From contig CAZVZC010000041.1 in NCBI GenBank assembly GCA_964631415.1, positions 1 through 16,775 of the forward strand: DNA of 16,775 bases. The letters run 5' to 3'. Below, piece by piece: positions 95 to 16,775 of the stretch. Both the position numbers and the translations under genes were made by a program. Each line of letters starts with the position of its first letter. Position 1 is the first letter of the stretch. The DNA is from an uncultured archaeon. Lineage in GTDB: Archaea > Asgardarchaeota > Thorarchaeia > Thorarchaeales > Thorarchaeaceae. The notes under the pieces were generated by a model. The model worked only from the letters and a program-made list of their open reading frames with translations. It had not been told where the DNA came from and ran no database searches.

Positions 95-346
95 ACACTC
101 AGCAAGCAGGATGGTGACACGTGAATCCCTTTTCAAGTGCCACTCGGACTATCTTCCATCAAGCCCTGCAGCTGTACTGGAAGCAGCGACAGAGGCTCGG
201 CAAGACCATTACTTCTTCGTGTATATCCCCATTGTCTGTGCTGACTCAATCTTGTGAGTTTCACACATCTCTCGAAAGTTCTTCCTGGTTGCGCCCTTCA
301 GAGCCGGGACATTCAATGTATATATGGTGAAGAAGCACCTATGAGT

Positions 347-534
347 ACCGTTCATTGTAAGTTGGACAAAGTTGGACACAGGAGTCTTTGTCCGCCCAGA
401 AACGGCACTGGGGTCTTACTCCTTGAGGCCAGTCTGTGTCGGGTCAACCTCAAAGAGATGTGTGGTTCGAGCTATTTAAGCCCCTACTCGAAAATGTCCA
501 AGATTGTCCAACTTCTACTCAGCTGTTGCATACC
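347..534 (-). mobile_element. Non-autonomous insertion element (MITE-like, IS607-type ends), copy 1: 182-bp body 350-531 flanked by ACC (GGT on the minus strand)
   Basis: Differs from copy 2 by 14 substitutions and no indels. Sits precisely inside a gene. AAGTTGGACA x2 at 359-378 and an inverted TGTCCAAGAT-TGTCCAACTT at 495-514. No transposase. Confidence 0.9.
348..451 (-). ncRNA. Predicted structured RNA within the element (omega-RNA-like scaffold candidate); also present in copies 2 and 3
   Basis: CTTAAATA TATA box at 480-473 places a predicted TSS near G451. Hairpin 453-445/431-423. Second hairpin 422-418/385-381 with inner stem 412-408/399-395. Loop hexamer 440-435 is complementary to 380-375 (pseudoknot) and invariant in all copies. 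Confidence 0.5.
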
Positions 535-961
535 CGATGGTGGTGCAGGACCACCCCACTTCTTCTCCCGAAAGTCGTTCTCCTCTTGCACACCGGGCAC
601 AGGCCCACCAGACTGTATGGACTTCGTTGTCGGGGATATGCTGTGCACCAGCCAGTGTATCCAGTCGCCTACCGGTGCATCAGGGTCGTTGCAGATCAGG
701 GCAAAGCTCTTGGTCCCTGCAGGAACCTGATCCCATGCCAAATGCGGGCTCGTGTTTCCCTTCCTGTACGCACATCTGTCAGGAATGGGTGCCCCTTGGG
801 CGAAATCACTGGATGACAATTTCACGGGCGTTCAACTCCTTCAACGTCCACTACTACTGTACAAGCTCGTACTTCTGTCTTACCATCTACTCACGTTAGC
901 GGAGGCGTCTTCTTCAGGGGTCTATGTCGCCACGCTTAAAACCGGTCCCGTGTTCGCTCAG

Positions 962-3671: not shown

Positions 3672-3709
3672 CATTGTGCCTTCAGCACCTAGCGCACGCT
3701 TGAGGATGA

Positions 3710-3737
3710 TATATAAGCGTGTGCCTATATATAGGCA
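3710..3737. promoter_or_regulatory. Divergent promoter region: TATA-like box (3710-3717) plus perfect 16-bp palindrome TGCCTATATATAGGCA (3722-3737), candidate operator
   Basis: Perfect palindrome read directly from the sequence, lying between divergent genes, one of which encodes a wHTH domain. Confidence 0.55.
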
Positions 3738-3744
3738 GGATTCT

Positions 3745-5238
3745 ATGTCCTTCGTTAGTACACTCAAATGCACTCAGTGCGGCCGTGAGTACGCATCAGA
3801 TGAACGAATCACTACTTGTGCTGTGTGCAATGGCGTGCTCAATGTGACTTATGACCTCATTCAGCTAAGAAGGCATTTCAAAAGCACTGAGCTTGAGCGG
3901 CGGTTGCCGAGCATCTGGAAGTACTTTGAGCTTCTCCCAGTCGTAAACCTTGACACGGTTGTTTCTCTGGGAGAAGGTGGAACTTTTCTTCACAAGTGTG
4001 ATGGACTGGCAGGAAGTACCGGGATGCAGGAGCTGTATCTGAAGGACGAAACTACTAACCCAACCGGGGCATTCATTGACAGAGGAACCGCAGTGGAGGT
4101 TTCAGTCGCAAGGGAGAGAGGGTTCAAGTCGATGTGCTGCGGATCAACCGGTAATCTGGCGGCTTCTCTTGTCGCCTATGCCGCAAGAGCTGGACTCAGC
4201 AGCAAAGTCTTCATTCCACAAAGAGGGGGTGTGGACGTCGGGAAGTTCTACCAGATTCTTGCATATGGGGGAGATGTCGAAGTTGTCAGGGATCATGAAG
4301 AGGCTGAAGCGAGAGCGAACCAAGAGGCATCTCACAGCCGCATCATCAGTCCATCCAGTCCACATTTTCTTGAGGGCGTGAAAACCACGGTCTATGAGGT
4401 GTGCGAACAGCTTCAGTGGACCGGACCGGACTGGATCATAGTCCCGATGGGAAATGGCGGTCATCTCTCAATGATATGGAAAGGACTCCGTGAACTCAAT
4501 CAGGTTGGCCTCCTCGAGAACAACAAGACGAGGCTTGTGGGTGTGCAGGCGAAGGGCTGCGCTCCAATCGTGGAAGCCTTTGACAGCAATGCGGACGAAG
4601 TCAGCCCATGTACGACCGTTTCAACACTGTCGCTCGATATCAGTGTGAAGAAGCCATCTTGTGGGTGGATGGCCCTCAAGGCCATACGTGAATCGAAGGG
4701 ACATGCAATAGCTGTCCGTGACAGGGACACCCTGAAGGCGCTGGGTGATCTGGCTCGACAAGAGGGAGTGTTCGCTGAACCTTCATCAGCGACGTCGATT
4801 GCCGCACTGAGGACACTCATGGAGTCAAAGGAGATAGGCCGGACAGACAGCGTAGTTTGTATCATAACAGGCATGGGACTGAAATACCCTGAGATTGCCA
4901 GAACGCTGGTGAAGGGCAGAGCCGAGCTTGAGAACCTGCTCAGTCAGGTCGAGGATCGACGATTCACTACCCATCTAGGAAAGACCAAGGTGCATATCCT
5001 CCACATTCTGGTCAAAGGTGAATCCTATGGATACGAAATCTGGAAGAGTCTTCAGGAGGACCACGGGGTCAGAGTCAGAATCCCGAGTGTATACCAACAC
5101 CTTGTGGAATTGAAGACAAGTGGCCTCATTATTAGTACTCGGTCTGAACGAACCTTCGATGGTAGAAATCGAAGATACTATGGGCTGTCAGAACGTGGGA
5201 AATGGACGCTGAATCAACTGGAACGGTTGTCTGACTGA
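3745..5238 (+). CDS. Threonine-synthase-like (PLP fold type II) protein lacking the catalytic Lys, fused to a C-terminal PadR-type wHTH; putative transcriptional regulator
   Basis: N-terminal CxxC...CxxC, SLGEGGT, NPTGAFIDRG (canonical NPTGSFKDRG), STGN, VPMGNGG, EPSSA, TGMGLK. C-terminus ILHILxxGESYGYEIWK...SVYQHLxELxxxGLI...RRYYGLSERG. Confidence 0.88.
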   Translation: MSFVSTLKCTQCGREYASDERITTCAVCNGVLNVTYDLIQLRRHFKSTELERRLPSIWKYFELLPVVNLDTVVSLGEGGTFLHKCDGLAGSTGMQELYLKDETTNPTGAFIDRGTAVEVSVARERGFKSMCCGSTGNLAASLVAYAARAGLSSKVFIPQRGGVDVGKFYQILAYGGDVEVVRDHEEAEARANQEASHSRIISPSSPHFLEGVKTTVYEVCEQLQWTGPDWIIVPMGNGGHLSMIWKGLRELNQVGLLENNKTRLVGVQAKGCAPIVEAFDSNADEVSPCTTVSTLSLDISVKKPSCGWMALKAIRESKGHAIAVRDRDTLKALGDLARQEGVFAEPSSATSIAALRTLMESKEIGRTDSVVCIITGMGLKYPEIARTLVKGRAELENLLSQVEDRRFTTHLGKTKVHILHILVKGESYGYEIWKSLQEDHGVRVRIPSVYQHLVELKTSGLIISTRSERTFDGRNRRYYGLSERGKWTLNQLERLSD

Positions 5239-5244
5239 TCCAAG

Positions 5245-5432
5245 ACCGTTCATTGTAAGTTGGACGAAGTTGGACACAGGAGTCTTTGTCCTCCCAGAAA
5301 CGGCACTGGGGTCGTACTCCTTGGGGCTGGAATGTGTCGAGTCAGCCTCAAAGAGACGTCTGATTCGAGCTATTTAAGCCCCTACTCGAAAATGTCCAAG
5401 ATTGTCCAACTTCTACGCAGCTGTTGCATACC
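5245..5432 (-). mobile_element. Insertion element copy 2 (intergenic; body 5248-5429 flanked by ACC)
   Basis: Full-length, ~92% identical to copy 1, with the same boundaries and orientation. Starts 6 bp after the stop of the thrC-like/PadR gene. Confidence 0.9.
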
Positions 5433-5538
5433 CTTCTCTTGTGTAACATAGGAGAAGTGTTTTAACAGCTGGTACATAGTGAATATAGAGGACAGACCTC
5501 AACGGATGTCCTGTATTGTGACATAGAGGTTGGGAAGA

Positions 5539-9669: not shown

Positions 9670-11682
9670 ATGTCATCTATACCCACTATTCAGGACAAGG
9701 CCATTAACACAATACGCTTCCTAGCAGCGGACGCTGTACAGAATGCAAACTCAGGTCACCCTGGAATGCCCATGGGCACAGCTGCAATGGCCTATGCTCT
9801 TTGGACACGACACCTACGCTTCAACCCTCAGAATCCAGCTTGGCCAGACAGAGACAGGTTTGTACTGTCAGGCGGGCACGGCTCCATGCTCCTCTATGCT
9901 CTCTTGCATCTCACGGGCTATGAGTTGCCGCTCGAAGAACTGAAGGCTTTCCGCCAATGGAAGTCGCGGACTCCAGGTCACCCTGAGAGAGGACTGACGC
10001 CAGGGGTCGAGGTCACAACAGGACCTCTAGGCCAAGGCTTCGGTAATGCTGTCGGCATGGCAATCGCTGAAACCCACCTAGAAGCAGAGTTCAATCGTAC
10101 AGGTCACAAAGTCATTGACCATTACACGTATGTCATAGCCACGGACGGCGACCTGATGGAGGGACTGTCATACGAGACCGCCTCCCTTGCAGGGCATCTG
10201 CGTCTAAGCAAGCTGATCGTGCTTTATGACGACAATCGTATCTCCATTGATGGCAGCACAGACCTTACGTTCACAGAAGACCGAAAAGTACGTTTCGAGG
10301 CCCAAGGCTGGCATGTGCAAGCAGTTCAGGACGGAAATGATGTCGATGCTGTCGACAATGCCATCAAGAAGGCAAAGGAGGATTCTCGCCCTTCGTTGAT
10401 CATCTGTAGGACTCACATAGGCTATGGGTTGCCGAAGAAGCAAGACACCGCCGAGGCTCACGGCGAGCCGCCTGGTGAGGAGGAACTCAAGGGTGCCAAG
10501 CTCAAGCTTGGTTGGCCACTCGAACCGAGGTTCTACATACCTGACGACGTTCTCAAACACTTCCGCGAAGCCATAGGGCGAGGAAAGAAACTGGAGTCAG
10601 AATGGAAGATGCGTATGGACCGTTATCGTCAGGCGTACCCCGACCAAGCAGCCGAACTCGAACGTCGTCTTGCAGGCAGATTGAAGGCGGGCTGGGACAC
10701 AGACCTGCCATCTTTCCCAGCAGACCCAAAGGGAATGGCGACTCGAGCCGCATCCGGTAAAGTGATCAATGCACTCGCCGCGCGGCTCTCTGAGATGATG
10801 GGGGGCTCAGCAGATCTCACGACCTCCAACAAGACCTGGATTGACGAAGGCCCTGCATTTCAGAAGGATACCCCACAGGGGCGGAACCTCCACTTCGGGG
10901 TCCGCGAACATGCAATGGGAGCAATCGTGAATGGCCTCGCTGTCCATGGCGGCATCATCCCCTTCTGCGGGACCTTCTTGGTCTTCGCAGACTACATGCG
11001 GCCAGCAATACGGCTGTCTGCTGTTTCGGGATATCCGAGCATCTGGCTCTACACGCATGACAGCATAGGTCTCGGAGAAGACGGCCCGACTCATCAGCCA
11101 GTCGAGCATCTCGCCTCGCTCCGGGCTATCCCGAATGTTGTGGTCATCCGACCCGCGGACGCAAATGAGGTGACAGAGGCGTGGAAGATTGCCGTCGCTC
11201 GCAGAGATGGTCCGACCATTCTGGTGCTCTCGCGTCAGAACTTGCCAGTCCTAGATCGAAAGACGGCCGGCGCAGCAAGTGGCCTGATACGCGGTGCGTA
11301 TGTGTTGGCCGACTTGGGCGGCCACCCACCAGAGGTCATCCTAATGGCATCAGGCTCGGAGGTGGGCCCAACTCTGAAGGCGGCCGAGAAGCTGGCCTCC
11401 GAAGGGATCGGAGTGAGGGCGATTTCCTTTCCTAGCTGGGAGCTCTTCGCTGCTCAAGACAAGAACTATCGTGACTCAGTCCTGATACCCAATGTCACTG
11501 CCCGGCTTGCTGTTGAAGCCGGTGTTTCTCAAGGATGGGCAAGATGGACTGGCGATAAGGGGGCCTTCGTTTCTATTGAGAGATTCGGAGCGTCGGCGCC
11601 GTCCCAGGTTGTCTTTGAACAGTACGGCTTCTCAGTCGACAATATTACCAAGCGAGCCAAGGAGTTACTTGCAAACCAGTAA
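9670..11682 (+). CDS. tkt: Transketolase (single-chain, bacterial type)
   Basis: [45 protein letters not shown] and [16 protein letters not shown] motifs; 670 aa. Confidence 0.97.
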
Positions 11683-11736: not shown

Positions 11737-12960
11737 CTAGGAGGAACCCGCCAACCGCGGTTCGGAAATACCCGGCGCCATCGCCCTGAGAGCGTCTGAA
11801 GCAGCTACTCTCAACTCCTCGTCCAAGTCAAGACTTGCGCGAGTGAGAGCAGGGATTGCTCGACCGTCCCCAATCAGCCCAAGGGCTTCAGCAGCCAGTT
11901 TCCTTGCCACTCTTGCTCTCTGAGTCAGTGCCGCCTCAAGACTATCTAACGACCTAGGGTGAGATACTTCCGCAGCCTGAAGCGCATCTGCATACCCAAT
12001 TTCACGTGCATGAGAAAGCAGATCAATGAGGACAGGGACTGCATCATGCCCGATTTTGGCCAGACTCTGTACGGCTTCGGTCTGGACACAGGAATCGAAA
12101 TCATTCAGTGCTTCAACGAGCACTTGCCCACTCCTTGGCAATGCAATCTGACCAAGTGCAGTGACGGCCGTCTTTCGCACCCAGGAATACTGGTCCTTCA
12201 CGGCCGCACCTAGGTAGGGCTCAGCTCTCGGGTCACCAATCTTCCCCAGCTTCTCGGCTGCAACAGCACGCTCAGTCGAGTTCCTACCGGTGAGCGTAAG
12301 AATGGCCCTCAGCAGCTCTGCACCCTGTTCTGATGTGTTCGTGAAGGAAACCTGGGCCGGATCGAGATCGCAGCTTGTTTCGCACGGTATGTTAGTACCA
12401 TCAATCCCTAGCTCGCTTAGAAACCTCTCGAATCCTGTGTGGGGTAACCTGTCCCTAATGGTAGAGGTCATGAACGCGAAGCCATAGTATGTGGAAGCGA
12501 GTGAGCAGGTATCAATCGAGCCCCTGCAAGTGCGCTCGATCTCAACGCGTCTGGATTCGAGAATGTCTGGAATCAGAACAGCCGCAGATGATTTCTCAAG
12601 AGAGCCTACATCCAAGAAGAACGTATTCCCATTGGAAACCTGTTCACGAAGAAGACGGACTGCAATCGCCCTAGCGGACACAATTCCTCGATTAATCTTA
12701 AGACGCCCCATCTCCTCGATGATGTCGATAGGATTTCTATCCAGTCCTTGTAGGTCAGAGATGTTGAGGGCGTCGAATACTGTATGCCTGCATAGACCCC
12801 ACCGCAATCGAAACTGTTGTGTTAGCGATAGTTTCCGAAGACGACCAACAAGGTCAAGGACACCGTTGCCAGCGAGATCCTCTTCAATCACATCTCTTAG
12901 CCGGTCCGCCTGTCTGTTGAGAATCACATCAATAATCTCGGCGGGAGGCATTTCACTCAA
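11737..12960 (-). CDS. HEAT/PBS-lyase repeat-containing protein
   Basis: Repeats such as RAVAAEKLGKIGDPRAEPYL, VRKTAVTALGQI and ARKLAAEALGLIGDGRAIPAL in the C-terminal half. N-terminal domain unknown; start uncertain. Confidence 0.8.
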   Translation of the reverse strand: MSEMPPAEIIDVILNRQADRLRDVIEEDLAGNGVLDLVGRLRKLSLTQQFRLRWGLCRHTVFDALNISDLQGLDRNPIDIIEEMGRLKINRGIVSARAIAVRLLREQVSNGNTFFLDVGSLEKSSAAVLIPDILESRRVEIERTCRGSIDTCSLASTYYGFAFMTSTIRDRLPHTGFERFLSELGIDGTNIPCETSCDLDPAQVSFTNTSEQGAELLRAILTLTGRNSTERAVAAEKLGKIGDPRAEPYLGAAVKDQYSWVRKTAVTALGQIALPRSGQVLVEALNDFDSCVQTEAVQSLAKIGHDAVPVLIDLLSHAREIGYADALQAAEVSHPRSLDSLEAALTQRARVARKLAAEALGLIGDGRAIPALTRASLDLDEELRVAASDALRAMAPGISEPRLAGSS

Positions 12961-13904: not shown

Positions 13905-14915
13905 ATGCGACCAATGAGCCAGAACAGGTCCACAGTCGGGAATGACGAGGCGGCTGTCATGCCTTCAAAGTCGCTGCAGAGCAGTCATACATTCGCAGTG
14001 ATGGAGGCGCTCCTGGTCACAGTCCTCTGGTCCTCCTCATGGGTTCTTATCAAGTTCGGACTTCAGGACGTCCCGCCGTTGATTTTCTCCAGTCTGAGAT
14101 ACTCAGGCGCCTCAGCGATTCTCTTGGGTGCGATACTCGCAAAGCCAAAACACCGGACCTTCCTCAAGAGCAGGAACAGGCGATGGTGGGGGTCGATAGC
14201 AGCATATGGTACGATATTCATCGCAATCACTCAGGGGGCTCAGTATGTCGGACTTGGAGTCCTTGATGCTATCACTGTTTCCATGATGCTGAACCTCACA
14301 CCCATACTCGTGCTATTGCTTGGCAGTTCTCTCTTGAGGGAAGTACCCTCGCGTCGCCAAGTCGCACTGATTCTTCTTGGTGTACTTGGGGCTATGATCT
14401 ACGTGTATCCCGTCGAATTTGATGCTTCACAGGCAATTGGGTTAACGGTTGTAATAGTAGCAGTCATTGCCAACGCCGTGTCGTCGATAATGGGCAGGTC
14501 GATAAACAGAGCACGTGACTCACCACCACTCATAGTCACGGGACTAAGTATGGCGGTCGGTTCGATTCTGCTCCTAGTTGCGGGACTTGCCGTTGAAGGC
14601 ATTGTGTCATTGACCCCCATATCGATAATCTATGTAGTGTGGTTGAGTGTGGTGAATACAGCCTTTGCCTTTACGCTGTGGAATGGAGCCATGCAGACGC
14701 TTCGAGCTGTCGACATGTCGATCATCAACAGCACTATGATGCCACAGATCGCTCTGCTCGCGGTCTGGTTTCTCGGCGAGATGCCTACTATCTTGGACTG
14801 GGTGGGATTGGCGGTGCTAGGCATCAGTGTGACTCTCGTGCAAGTGGATCAAGCCCGCAGACTCACCTCTAATCAGGAGACCAAGACAGACAACAGCCCA
14901 ACAGACCCAGAGTGA
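13905..14915 (+). CDS. EamA/DMT-family transporter
   Basis: LWSSSWVLIKFGL..VPPL...LRY, LLREVP, FLGEMP; about 10 transmembrane segments. The true start may be 13959 or 14001. Confidence 0.9.
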   Translation: MRPMSQNRSTVGNDEAAVMPSKSLQSSHTFAVMEALLVTVLWSSSWVLIKFGLQDVPPLIFSSLRYSGASAILLGAILAKPKHRTFLKSRNRRWWGSIAAYGTIFIAITQGAQYVGLGVLDAITVSMMLNLTPILVLLLGSSLLREVPSRRQVALILLGVLGAMIYVYPVEFDASQAIGLTVVIVAVIANAVSSIMGRSINRARDSPPLIVTGLSMAVGSILLLVAGLAVEGIVSLTPISIIYVVWLSVVNTAFAFTLWNGAMQTLRAVDMSIINSTMMPQIALLAVWFLGEMPTILDWVGLAVLGISVTLVQVDQARRLTSNQETKTDNSPTDPE

Positions 14916-16134: not shown

Positions 16135-16675
16135 TCAGAGCTGCAGTGGTTTCTCCCATTCCTCAAGAACACTCTGAGTTTCCCGTCGTACCTTCTCAAG
16201 CACTCTCTTGGATTTCTGTGTCACATCGGTGGACAGTTCCTCGTCACAGCGTCCCAGCAACATCTCAAGATGCTTTAGCGGTTGCTTGGCGCAATCGCCC
16301 CAGTCCCAGACACAACACCAACGGCGTCCTATGTCAGCACCATAGGCAGCCTCGGCCTTGGCTCTGATCTCAGGAGAGAGTATGGTACCCGGATGAAGCC
16401 AAGGCATGTCTGTGCCATTTGACTCGACACCGAATATCGCGTTCGAGAAGAAGAGATAGATAGGAACATGCATGCGTTCAGCGAGTTGTTTCAGACGCTG
16501 AGCTCCTATCAGACCGCCTGCAGTGGAATAGACAATCACTGCACGTATGTCTGGACCGCGGGCGAGTGGGGCGTCGAAGATACGTTCGATGGCTCCACCA
16601 GTGGCTATTGCGTACCCCACTAAAATCACAGATTCAGGCGATAGCGCCTCGAAGTTCTCGTAGGCAAGCTCGGTC
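16135..16675 (-). pseudogene. 3' part of a type I phosphoribosyltransferase (UPRTase-like) gene interrupted by repeat copy 3
   Basis: VILVGYAIATGG resembles the PRPP-binding loop (hhhhD.hATGG). The ORF begins abruptly at the element junction and lacks an N-terminal half. Confidence 0.6.
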
Positions 16676-16775
16676 ACCGTTCATTGTTAGTTGGACAAAG
16701 TTGGACACAGGAGTCTTTGCCCTCCCAGAAACGGCACTGGGGTCGCACTCCTTGAGACTGGAATGTGTCGAGGCA
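16676..16775 (-). mobile_element. Insertion element copy 3 (truncated by the window end)
   Basis: ACC-GTTCATTGTTAGTTGGACAAAGTTGGACAC...; 7 differences from copy 2 over 97 nt; same orientation and boundary. Confidence 0.88.

Follow-up and report, generated by a model that had tools for sequence, protein, structure and literature searches.

A gene-less IS607-type element of Thorarchaeota with its own promoter and a predicted omega-RNA scaffold, probably supplying guides to a TnpB-like nuclease in trans

Introduction

IS607 elements are recognised by a GG target with a (G)GG preference, the absence of target duplication, short subterminal repeats without terminal inverted repeats, and an N-terminal DNA-binding domain (PMC6188088). 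In CboIStron, an IS607 element for which Zedaveinyte et al. describe the omega RNA of TnpB together with 'minimal' constructs, TGGG with a GG core is the target of the serine recombinase and TGGG likewise the TAM of TnpB, the scaffold ends in UCGG, and position -3 spares the occupied site (bioRxiv 10.1101/2023.11.20.567912). Another IS607 TnpB is accompanied by a RAGATH-18-derived reRNA, a structured RNA located directly downstream that ends at the right end (RE) of the element (PMC11061315).

Guide RNAs also occur on mobile elements that encode no protein. The stand-alone omega RNAs of OMEGA systems (Altae-Tran et al. 2021) are described, in the passage of PMC10691335 that deals with them, as being mobilised without the effector and acting in trans, and the gene-less PATE-like elements of Geobacillus stearothermophilus often encode omega RNAs that need TnpB in trans (PMC10055086). 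Asgard hosts, a TnpB and a guide region at the element end are furthermore found in the aCas1-associated TnpB systems (Cas1H-Asgard groups; PMC10691335).

Here, we analyse a repeat of a Thorarchaeota genome that shares features with each of these systems. Like CboIStron, it has a GG core in an NGGG context, (A)GGG here versus TGGG there, lacks target duplication, and has a predicted scaffold ending in NCGG (ACGG versus UCGG). It differs in having no group I intron, in its host, an Asgard archaeon rather than Clostridium, in natural copies that lack genes and bring an archaeal TATA promoter of their own, and in a nuclease of 650-720 aa, known here from sequence alone, whose N-terminal ~480 aa belong to no family. 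With the stand-alone omega RNAs and PATEs, which are reported to work in trans with compatible effectors, it has in common a protein-less layout of transposon ends and omega RNA, the nuclease being encoded elsewhere in the genome; those elements are however IS200/IS605 or IscB derivatives moved by a Y1 transposase, whereas the present one is IS607-type and spread across an archaeal family. The RAGATH-18 system offers the combination of an IS607-family TnpB and a conserved structured RNA ending at the RE, yet the scaffold described here is another, shorter RNA (~105 nt).

Results

Element boundaries and insertion sites

The window, i.e. the whole stretch of 16,775 nt that was analysed, is one contig (C41) of a genome assembled as 81 contigs totalling 2.16 Mb, 85% complete and with 52.7% G+C; a thermosome gene on another contig (C70) agrees with an archaeal host. 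The repeat comprises 189 nt on the minus strand at window positions 535-347 (copy 1) and recurs twice in the window (Table 1). It gives 33-38 BLAST matches in the 2.16-Mb genome, approximately 12 of them complete, several cut by contig ends, indicating that the repeat breaks the assembly, and the rest older, diverged copies. With a covariance model built from 22 own-genome copies, 39 sites are detected in the same genome. Among 36 further genomes from this Thorarchaeota family, the motif is present in 25, with up to 62 copies per genome, and it is found in none of the 24 genomes searched outside the family.

Table 1. Features of the repeat in the window (positions of the whole window; features belong to copy 1 unless stated)
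Feature	Position	Strand	Remarks
GGG adjoining the left end, target/TAM-like	533..535	-	Holds the GG crossover core common to RE; logo of 93 copies
Left end (LE) with two subterminal TTGGACA motifs (511-505, 501-495)	495..532	-	Sharp boundary in 15 own copies
Predicted archaeal promoter: purine-rich BRE-like AGGGG (485-481) and TATA box CTTAAATA (480-473)	473..485	-	
Hairpin 1 (451-445 with 431-425)	425..451	-	Helix 90.3% paired; 5 of 7 pairs changed on both sides
5' pseudoknot strand GACAC in hairpin 1 loop	440-436	-	
Hairpin 2, outer stem	423-418 with 385-380	-	92.4% paired; 4 of 6 pairs changed on both sides
Hairpin 2, inner stem	412-408 with 399-395	-	97.7% paired; pair 55-75: CG 74, UA 22
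Hairpin 2, conserved loop UGCCGUUU	within 380..423	-	
3' pseudoknot strand GUGUC	375..379	-	Pairs with 440-436; 91.5% paired, alignment unfitted
Right end (RE), also 3' end of predicted RNA scaffold	347..378	-	Terminus ..ACAAUGAACGG(U)
Predicted guide, flank past scaffold (ACUCAUAGGUGCUUC...)	327..346	-	Right half of the empty site in G002:C71
Copy 2	5245..5433	-	TATA 5378-5371, RE end 5245, guide from 5244; 93% identical to copy 1
Copy 3, cut at contig end	16676..16775	-	RE end 16676, guide from 16675

The boundaries of the element are sharp in an alignment of 15 own copies and were further defined by junction logos of 93-97 copies drawn from 18 genomes. At the left junction (93 copies), an A in 50 is followed by GGG, conserved in 87, 80 and 79 copies at its three positions, and then by T and the element, while the sequence further out is random. 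At the RE, AATGAACGG is kept in 88-96 of 97 copies, the terminal CGG in 93-96 and the next T in 88, with random sequence beyond. The original prediction of a GGG-type motif at the insertion site thus agrees with the (A)GGG of the left flank, the sequence after ..ACGG(U) being random. The tips of the element are unlike, TATGCAAC.. at the LE versus ..AATGAACGG at the RE, and terminal inverted repeats are absent; instead, the TTGGACA motif is present twice at each end, at the RE in inverted orientation relative to the LE as TGTCCAA (378-372 and 368-362). In copy 1 the terminus ..ACGGU is reached at 347 and the flank, from 346, reads ACUCAUAGGUGCUUC. From TnpB biology we infer that 327..346 would act as a guide, and the guide starts given earlier for the three copies are correct.

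Both complete copies of the window are missing at the orthologous loci of a sister species (genome G002), in which the empty sites read ..GTCTGGT/ACTCATAG.. and ..GAAGGGC/CTTGGATC.. (slash, junction). The locus of copy 1 in this genome, on contig C71, keeps a single (T)GG(T), and the empty site of copy 2 is situated on contig C8 at about 14407-14412. Occupied and empty sites consequently differ by a clean 185-nt insertion, with only GG(T) in common and no target duplication, i.e. insertion is precise at the GG core beside (A)GGG. In this comparison, the guide flank joined to GGG rebuilds the vacant site, as had been proposed for each insertion and its own empty site. The sister species has copies that are 97-100% identical to copy 2, which shows that the family was recently active.

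Copy 1 interrupts a PEBP/YbhB-type gene (window 209-825, minus), with which it shares its orientation. On G002:C71 the orthologue is an intact 143-codon ORF, and the insertion lies in its ..PPSG/THRY.. codons; joining the window flanks of copy 1 yields no ORF of at least 130 aa, the frame being read from the orthologue. These surroundings bear on the idea that the element has been domesticated by the host, with the outward promoter or the RNA regulating neighbours through antisense, read-through or TldR-like repression rather than serving transposon retention. Compatible with such a role, RNA extended past the RE of copy 2 would run antisense to the 3' end of a PALP-PadR ORF whose stop is only 7 nt away, and copy 3 points into an ORF at 16135-16677. 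The PALP-PadR ORF (window 3676-5238, plus) encodes 520 aa and combines a PLP-dependent enzyme domain (PALP, 211 bits) with a PadR-type regulator domain (48 bits) at its C terminus. However, the flanks are random past GGG and T, copy 1 merely disrupts a gene that the sister species keeps whole, and vacancy of both sites in that species means that no locus-specific conservation is seen. The associated nuclease moreover retains the RuvC residues D, E and D, unlike nuclease-dead TldR, and we consider domestication very unlikely.

RNA scaffold

The predicted RNA, read from the minus strand, folds into two hairpins joined by a pseudoknot. The sequences singled out in the original prediction are located where it had placed them, namely CTTAAATA at 480-473, the G at 451, GACACA at 440-435, GGAGU at 422-418, CCCAG at 412-408, CUGGG at 399-395, ACUCC at 385-381 and UGUGUC at 380-375, and three details call for adjustment. 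Hairpin 1 has the described form GAGGCUG/CAGCCUC in other copies and is GAGGUUG/UGGCCUC in copy 1 itself; copy 2 has one A.C mismatch in this stem, for which the earlier figure of four G-U pairs out of five substitutions is right. Across the family the pseudoknot, proposed as GACACA/UGUGUC, is best drawn with 5 bp, GACAC/GUGUC, because U380 pairs with A423 and thereby extends hairpin 2 (pair 42-90: AU 40, CG 36, GC 3).

The fold was evaluated on a MAFFT alignment of 97 distinct copies from 18 genomes that was fitted to no structure, the pseudoknot being absent from the covariance model as well as from this alignment. Hairpins and 5-bp pseudoknot together are 92.7% paired, compared to 30-45% with slid partners, and counting sequences rather than independent events there are 159 double-change cells versus 49 in shuffles and a covariation score of 0.28 versus 0.145, values that 0 of 500 shuffles reach. 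When thinned to 45 representatives below 85% identity, the copies are still 90.6% paired, a level reached by 0 of 1000 shuffles. The structure of the repeat is therefore far beyond chance, and in both sets the two hairpins and the pseudoknot covary at the RNA level, as the earlier proposal of a pseudoknotted RNA required. Pseudoknot pair 25-91, for example, is CG in 79, GC in 6, UA in 3 and UG in 3 copies, and the variants GACAU/AUGUC and GACAG/CUGUC occur beside the common GACAC/GUGUC. On the sense strand of the element, G-U cells exceed A.C cells in the 97 copies (184 versus 45), so that pairing is better on the minus-strand transcript, as expected for RNA.

The strength of this result depends on the copies of relatives: on the 22 own-genome copies the named structure is only weakly above controls, and it becomes decisive with the 97. 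RNAalifold, applied to the same 22 copies, kept the inner hairpin only, and the single-sequence fold of copy 1 scarcely stands out (z = -1.26) and favours partly different pairings. The subfamilies L071 and L187 have a short hairpin 1 loop without a pseudoknot partner. We note a candidate second tertiary pairing between the loop GCCGUU (401-406) and the 3' end AACGGU (347-352), which adjoins the predicted guide; 96% of its cells are complementary in the 97 copies, a value that 133 of 500 shuffles reach, and as both sides are almost invariant, covariation cannot test it. Rfam models run on the whole window at gathering score gave no match, RAGATH-18 included, and at E <= 10 gave only a chance snoRNA match of 12.7 bits and again no RAGATH-18; scanning the window for tRNAs detected none. 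Elsewhere in the window, a 32-nt inverted repeat (11257-11288 and 12146-12177; 78% complementary, arms 857 nt apart) spans the end of the transketolase gene and the HEAT-repeat gene and may well have arisen by chance.

Promoter

In 74 of 97 copies (18 genomes), the distance from the start of the best TATA-like octamer to the first G of hairpin 1 is 29-32 nt. The octamer reads TTTATATA or CTTAAATA and follows a G-rich stretch. The spacer between the octamer and hairpin 1 is not conserved, and the distance is nevertheless fixed across diverged subfamilies. The promoter originally assigned to the cassette is accordingly a conserved part of the element. Its distance places the predicted RNA start within a few nucleotides of 451, and we take the start to lie at about 451-455 on the basis of this spacing. 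A TATA-like box also lies a short way inside the LE of relatives that carry genes, suggesting that the mini-element, as we here call the gene-less repeat, most likely arose by a deletion joining the LE promoter region to the scaffold.

Parent element and recombinase

On contig C76 of the own genome, an LE of the mini-element type is followed by a tnpA with a MerR HTH (PF00376, 32.1 bits) and a Resolvase domain (PF00239, 58.3 bits). In relatives, tnpA lies upstream of a tnpB-like gene on the same strand on 20 contigs of 16 genomes, at a spacing of ~2 kb or ~7.5-8 kb or with the genes fused by deletions, and in 11 of 11 tnpA loci the mini-element LE is found 40-60 nt before the start codon. The full-length order is LE, tnpA, sometimes an ORF of ~1,700 aa as cargo, the TnpB-like gene and RE. 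All five IS607 traits listed above are present in the element or in its tnpA relatives, and the accessory tnpB downstream of tnpA on the same strand is a further IS607 feature. Judged from these sequences, the parent belongs to the IS607 type, having a serine recombinase and GG crossover, and not to IS200/IS605.

An IS200/IS605-type PATE, in which the hairpins would be DNA structures for a Y1 (HUH) transposase and mobility would proceed through ssDNA, might have been expected, as PATEs are the published gene-less elements bearing omega RNAs (PMC10055086) and TnpB is most often linked to Y1 transposases. Yet PF01797 (Y1_Tnp) has 0 matches in the own genome (85% complete), the linked transposase is a serine recombinase, and repeated TTGGACA motifs with a GG core are found at the ends in place of the subterminal hairpins that mark both ends of PATE/IS200-IS605 members together with a Y1 TnpA. 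The excess of G-U cells likewise fits RNA rather than DNA pairing, making a PATE origin extremely improbable.

The cargo ORF is represented by a 1708-aa frame (L208:290-5416, minus; the same locus as G003:C16), which in a 7.6-kb element separates the LE from the tnpB-like gene and is encoded on the opposite strand. Searches of Pfam, NCBIfam, PADLOC, PDB sequences and Atlas gave no match for it, and the ~7.5-8 kb tnpA-tnpB spacing in at least 9 genomes suggests that it is a common cargo. Parentage of the Cas1 type finds no support in sequence searches of this ORF, which gave no Cas1 match, or in the insertion sites, where target duplication is absent; the present family further departs from the aCas1-associated TnpB systems in its MerR-HTH serine recombinase and in having no conserved motif after the variable flank.

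Internal deletions of the parent are graded. In the C76 locus (2-508, minus), a deletion fuses tnpA in frame to a C-terminal TnpB motif, with similar tnpA-tnpB fusions in G009, G013, G015 and G032, and a gene-less variant of ~640 bp with both ends is found at G000:C6:40787-41431.

TnpB-like nuclease

The same RE is shared by nuclease genes. Contig C2 of the own genome contains a C-terminal TnpB-like remnant (Cas12f1-like TNB domain, 56 bits) that runs into it, and contigs C32 and C19 end inside two further tnpB-like copies with the same RE, which overlaps the stop of the tnpB-like gene on all three contigs and in the G003 loci. In relatives, 23 of 23 cognate tnpB loci have a covariance-model match at their 3' end, and in an alignment of these loci that was fitted to the model, the stems reach 82.7% pairing and 82 double-change cells. 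The last ~105 nt of the nuclease gene, into the RE, therefore correspond to the scaffold, and the similarity to tnpB 3' ends that the original prediction called for is borne out on C2, C32 and C19 and, with the covariance model, in the relatives. Since the loop of hairpin 1 is similar to the stretch of codons that follows RuvC-III (motif ..AARNI..) in the tnpB-like gene, the scaffold appears to begin inside the coding region of the parent. A tnpB-like gene is present in 20 of 25 motif-bearing and 0 of 11 motif-free genomes, a comparison of related genomes that are not independent samples.

The cognate nuclease is a 722-aa protein (P0002) encoded at L208:5600-7768, i.e. G003:C16, with open frames of 650-760 aa in relatives. 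TnpB/Cas12f models are matched only by the last ~240 aa of the nuclease, at residues ~480-700 (PF07282, 52 bits; NF040570, 61 bits, below the cut-off), and the N-terminal ~480 aa match no family. A zinc ribbon is present, as is the RuvC triad. In the own, 85%-complete genome, an intact gene for it was not assembled, the C2 remnant and the two 3' ends at contig breaks being all that is represented. Mini-element scaffolds score 70-139 bits with the covariance model versus 24-70 bits for tnpB-linked ones, so that compatibility between the mini-element RNA and the nuclease is an assumption of our model.

A second, unrelated TnpB-family gene is located on C59 (G000:C59:5005-6744, minus; 580-aa open frame, TNB domain 54 bits). 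We rejected it as the nuclease acting in trans, as it shares just ~29% identity with the cognate protein in the RuvC region and the covariance-model search of the genome gave no match on C59.

The descent of the scaffold from a nuclease gene raises the question whether mini-elements are inert relics, mobilised by their ends alone, in which promoter and fold are idle leftovers of the parent and no functional guide RNA is made. The lack of an assembled intact nuclease gene in the own genome would be in agreement with this, as would the A.C mismatch in hairpin 1 of copy 2 and the poor TATA boxes or broken stems of several diverged copies. Against it, compensatory changes kept arising among mini-element subfamilies after their split from the gene-bearing parent, and the TATA distance has been kept while the spacer diverges freely. 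In addition, the central ~110 nt are outside the subterminal motifs bound by IS607 TnpA (PMC6188088), yet they are conserved in 18 genomes. We consequently regard the inert-relic explanation as improbable.

Discussion

Based on the combined analysis of ends, fold, promoter and relatives, we propose that the repeat is very likely a gene-less, non-autonomous internal-deletion derivative of an IS607 element of Thorarchaeota, consisting of LE, promoter, omega-RNA scaffold and RE, which would provide a guide for TnpB in trans. Transcription, nuclease binding and cleavage we infer by analogy with described TnpB systems. Transcription would start near 451 and cross ..AACGG(U) into the flank, so that the 3' end of the RNA of each copy would be complementary to its own right flank. 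Following excision by the serine recombinase, a TnpB-like nuclease supplied in trans would cut the vacant site, composed of (A)GGG and flank, and repair from the occupied sister chromosome would then bring the copy back. With ACGG instead of AGGG at the RE, the occupied site would escape cleavage.

The original prediction of a stand-alone omega-RNA cassette is thereby supported at the level of sequence, where all of its predictions held; what it missed is the IS607 parentage and that elements of this kind had been published. No new principle is involved, as stand-alone trans-acting omega RNAs and guide-bearing gene-less IS derivatives are already described. New are the host and the element family; in the literature searched we found no description of this Thorarchaeota IS607 family. 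The repeat nonetheless represents a clean natural case of a protein-less IS607 derivative with its own promoter and a compact predicted scaffold, and its diverged copies are numerous enough, in the hundreds, for sequence comparison to settle fold, pseudoknot, (A)GGG motif and precise boundaries. It also makes an Asgard trio of TnpA, TnpB and omega RNA directly testable, including an unusually large TnpB-like nuclease with an N-terminal two-thirds outside any known family, and accounts for many of the contig breaks, split genes and 'orphan structured RNAs' met with in assemblies of Thorarchaeota.

Mini-elements outnumber the nuclease gene several-fold to ~50-fold in the assembled genomes of the family. 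A bolder and rather doubtful extension of the proposed mechanism is that they are more than degraded copies and form a selected 'guide parasite' layer, with one large TnpB/Cas12f-like nuclease loaded with dozens of different trans guides. If this were true, it would constitute a natural arrangement of multiple guides and a single effector, intermediate between TnpB with its one guide and CRISPR-Cas12 with its arrays, and this in the archaeal lineage that is closest to eukaryotes.

Copies can also meet one another. At G000:C14:41263-41519, two are arranged head to tail, with the LE of the younger one beginning at the cut RE of an older, diverged copy (..AACTAACAAAGGG/CTGACAACAGCTG..), and the younger copy seems to have inserted into or beside the RE of the other.
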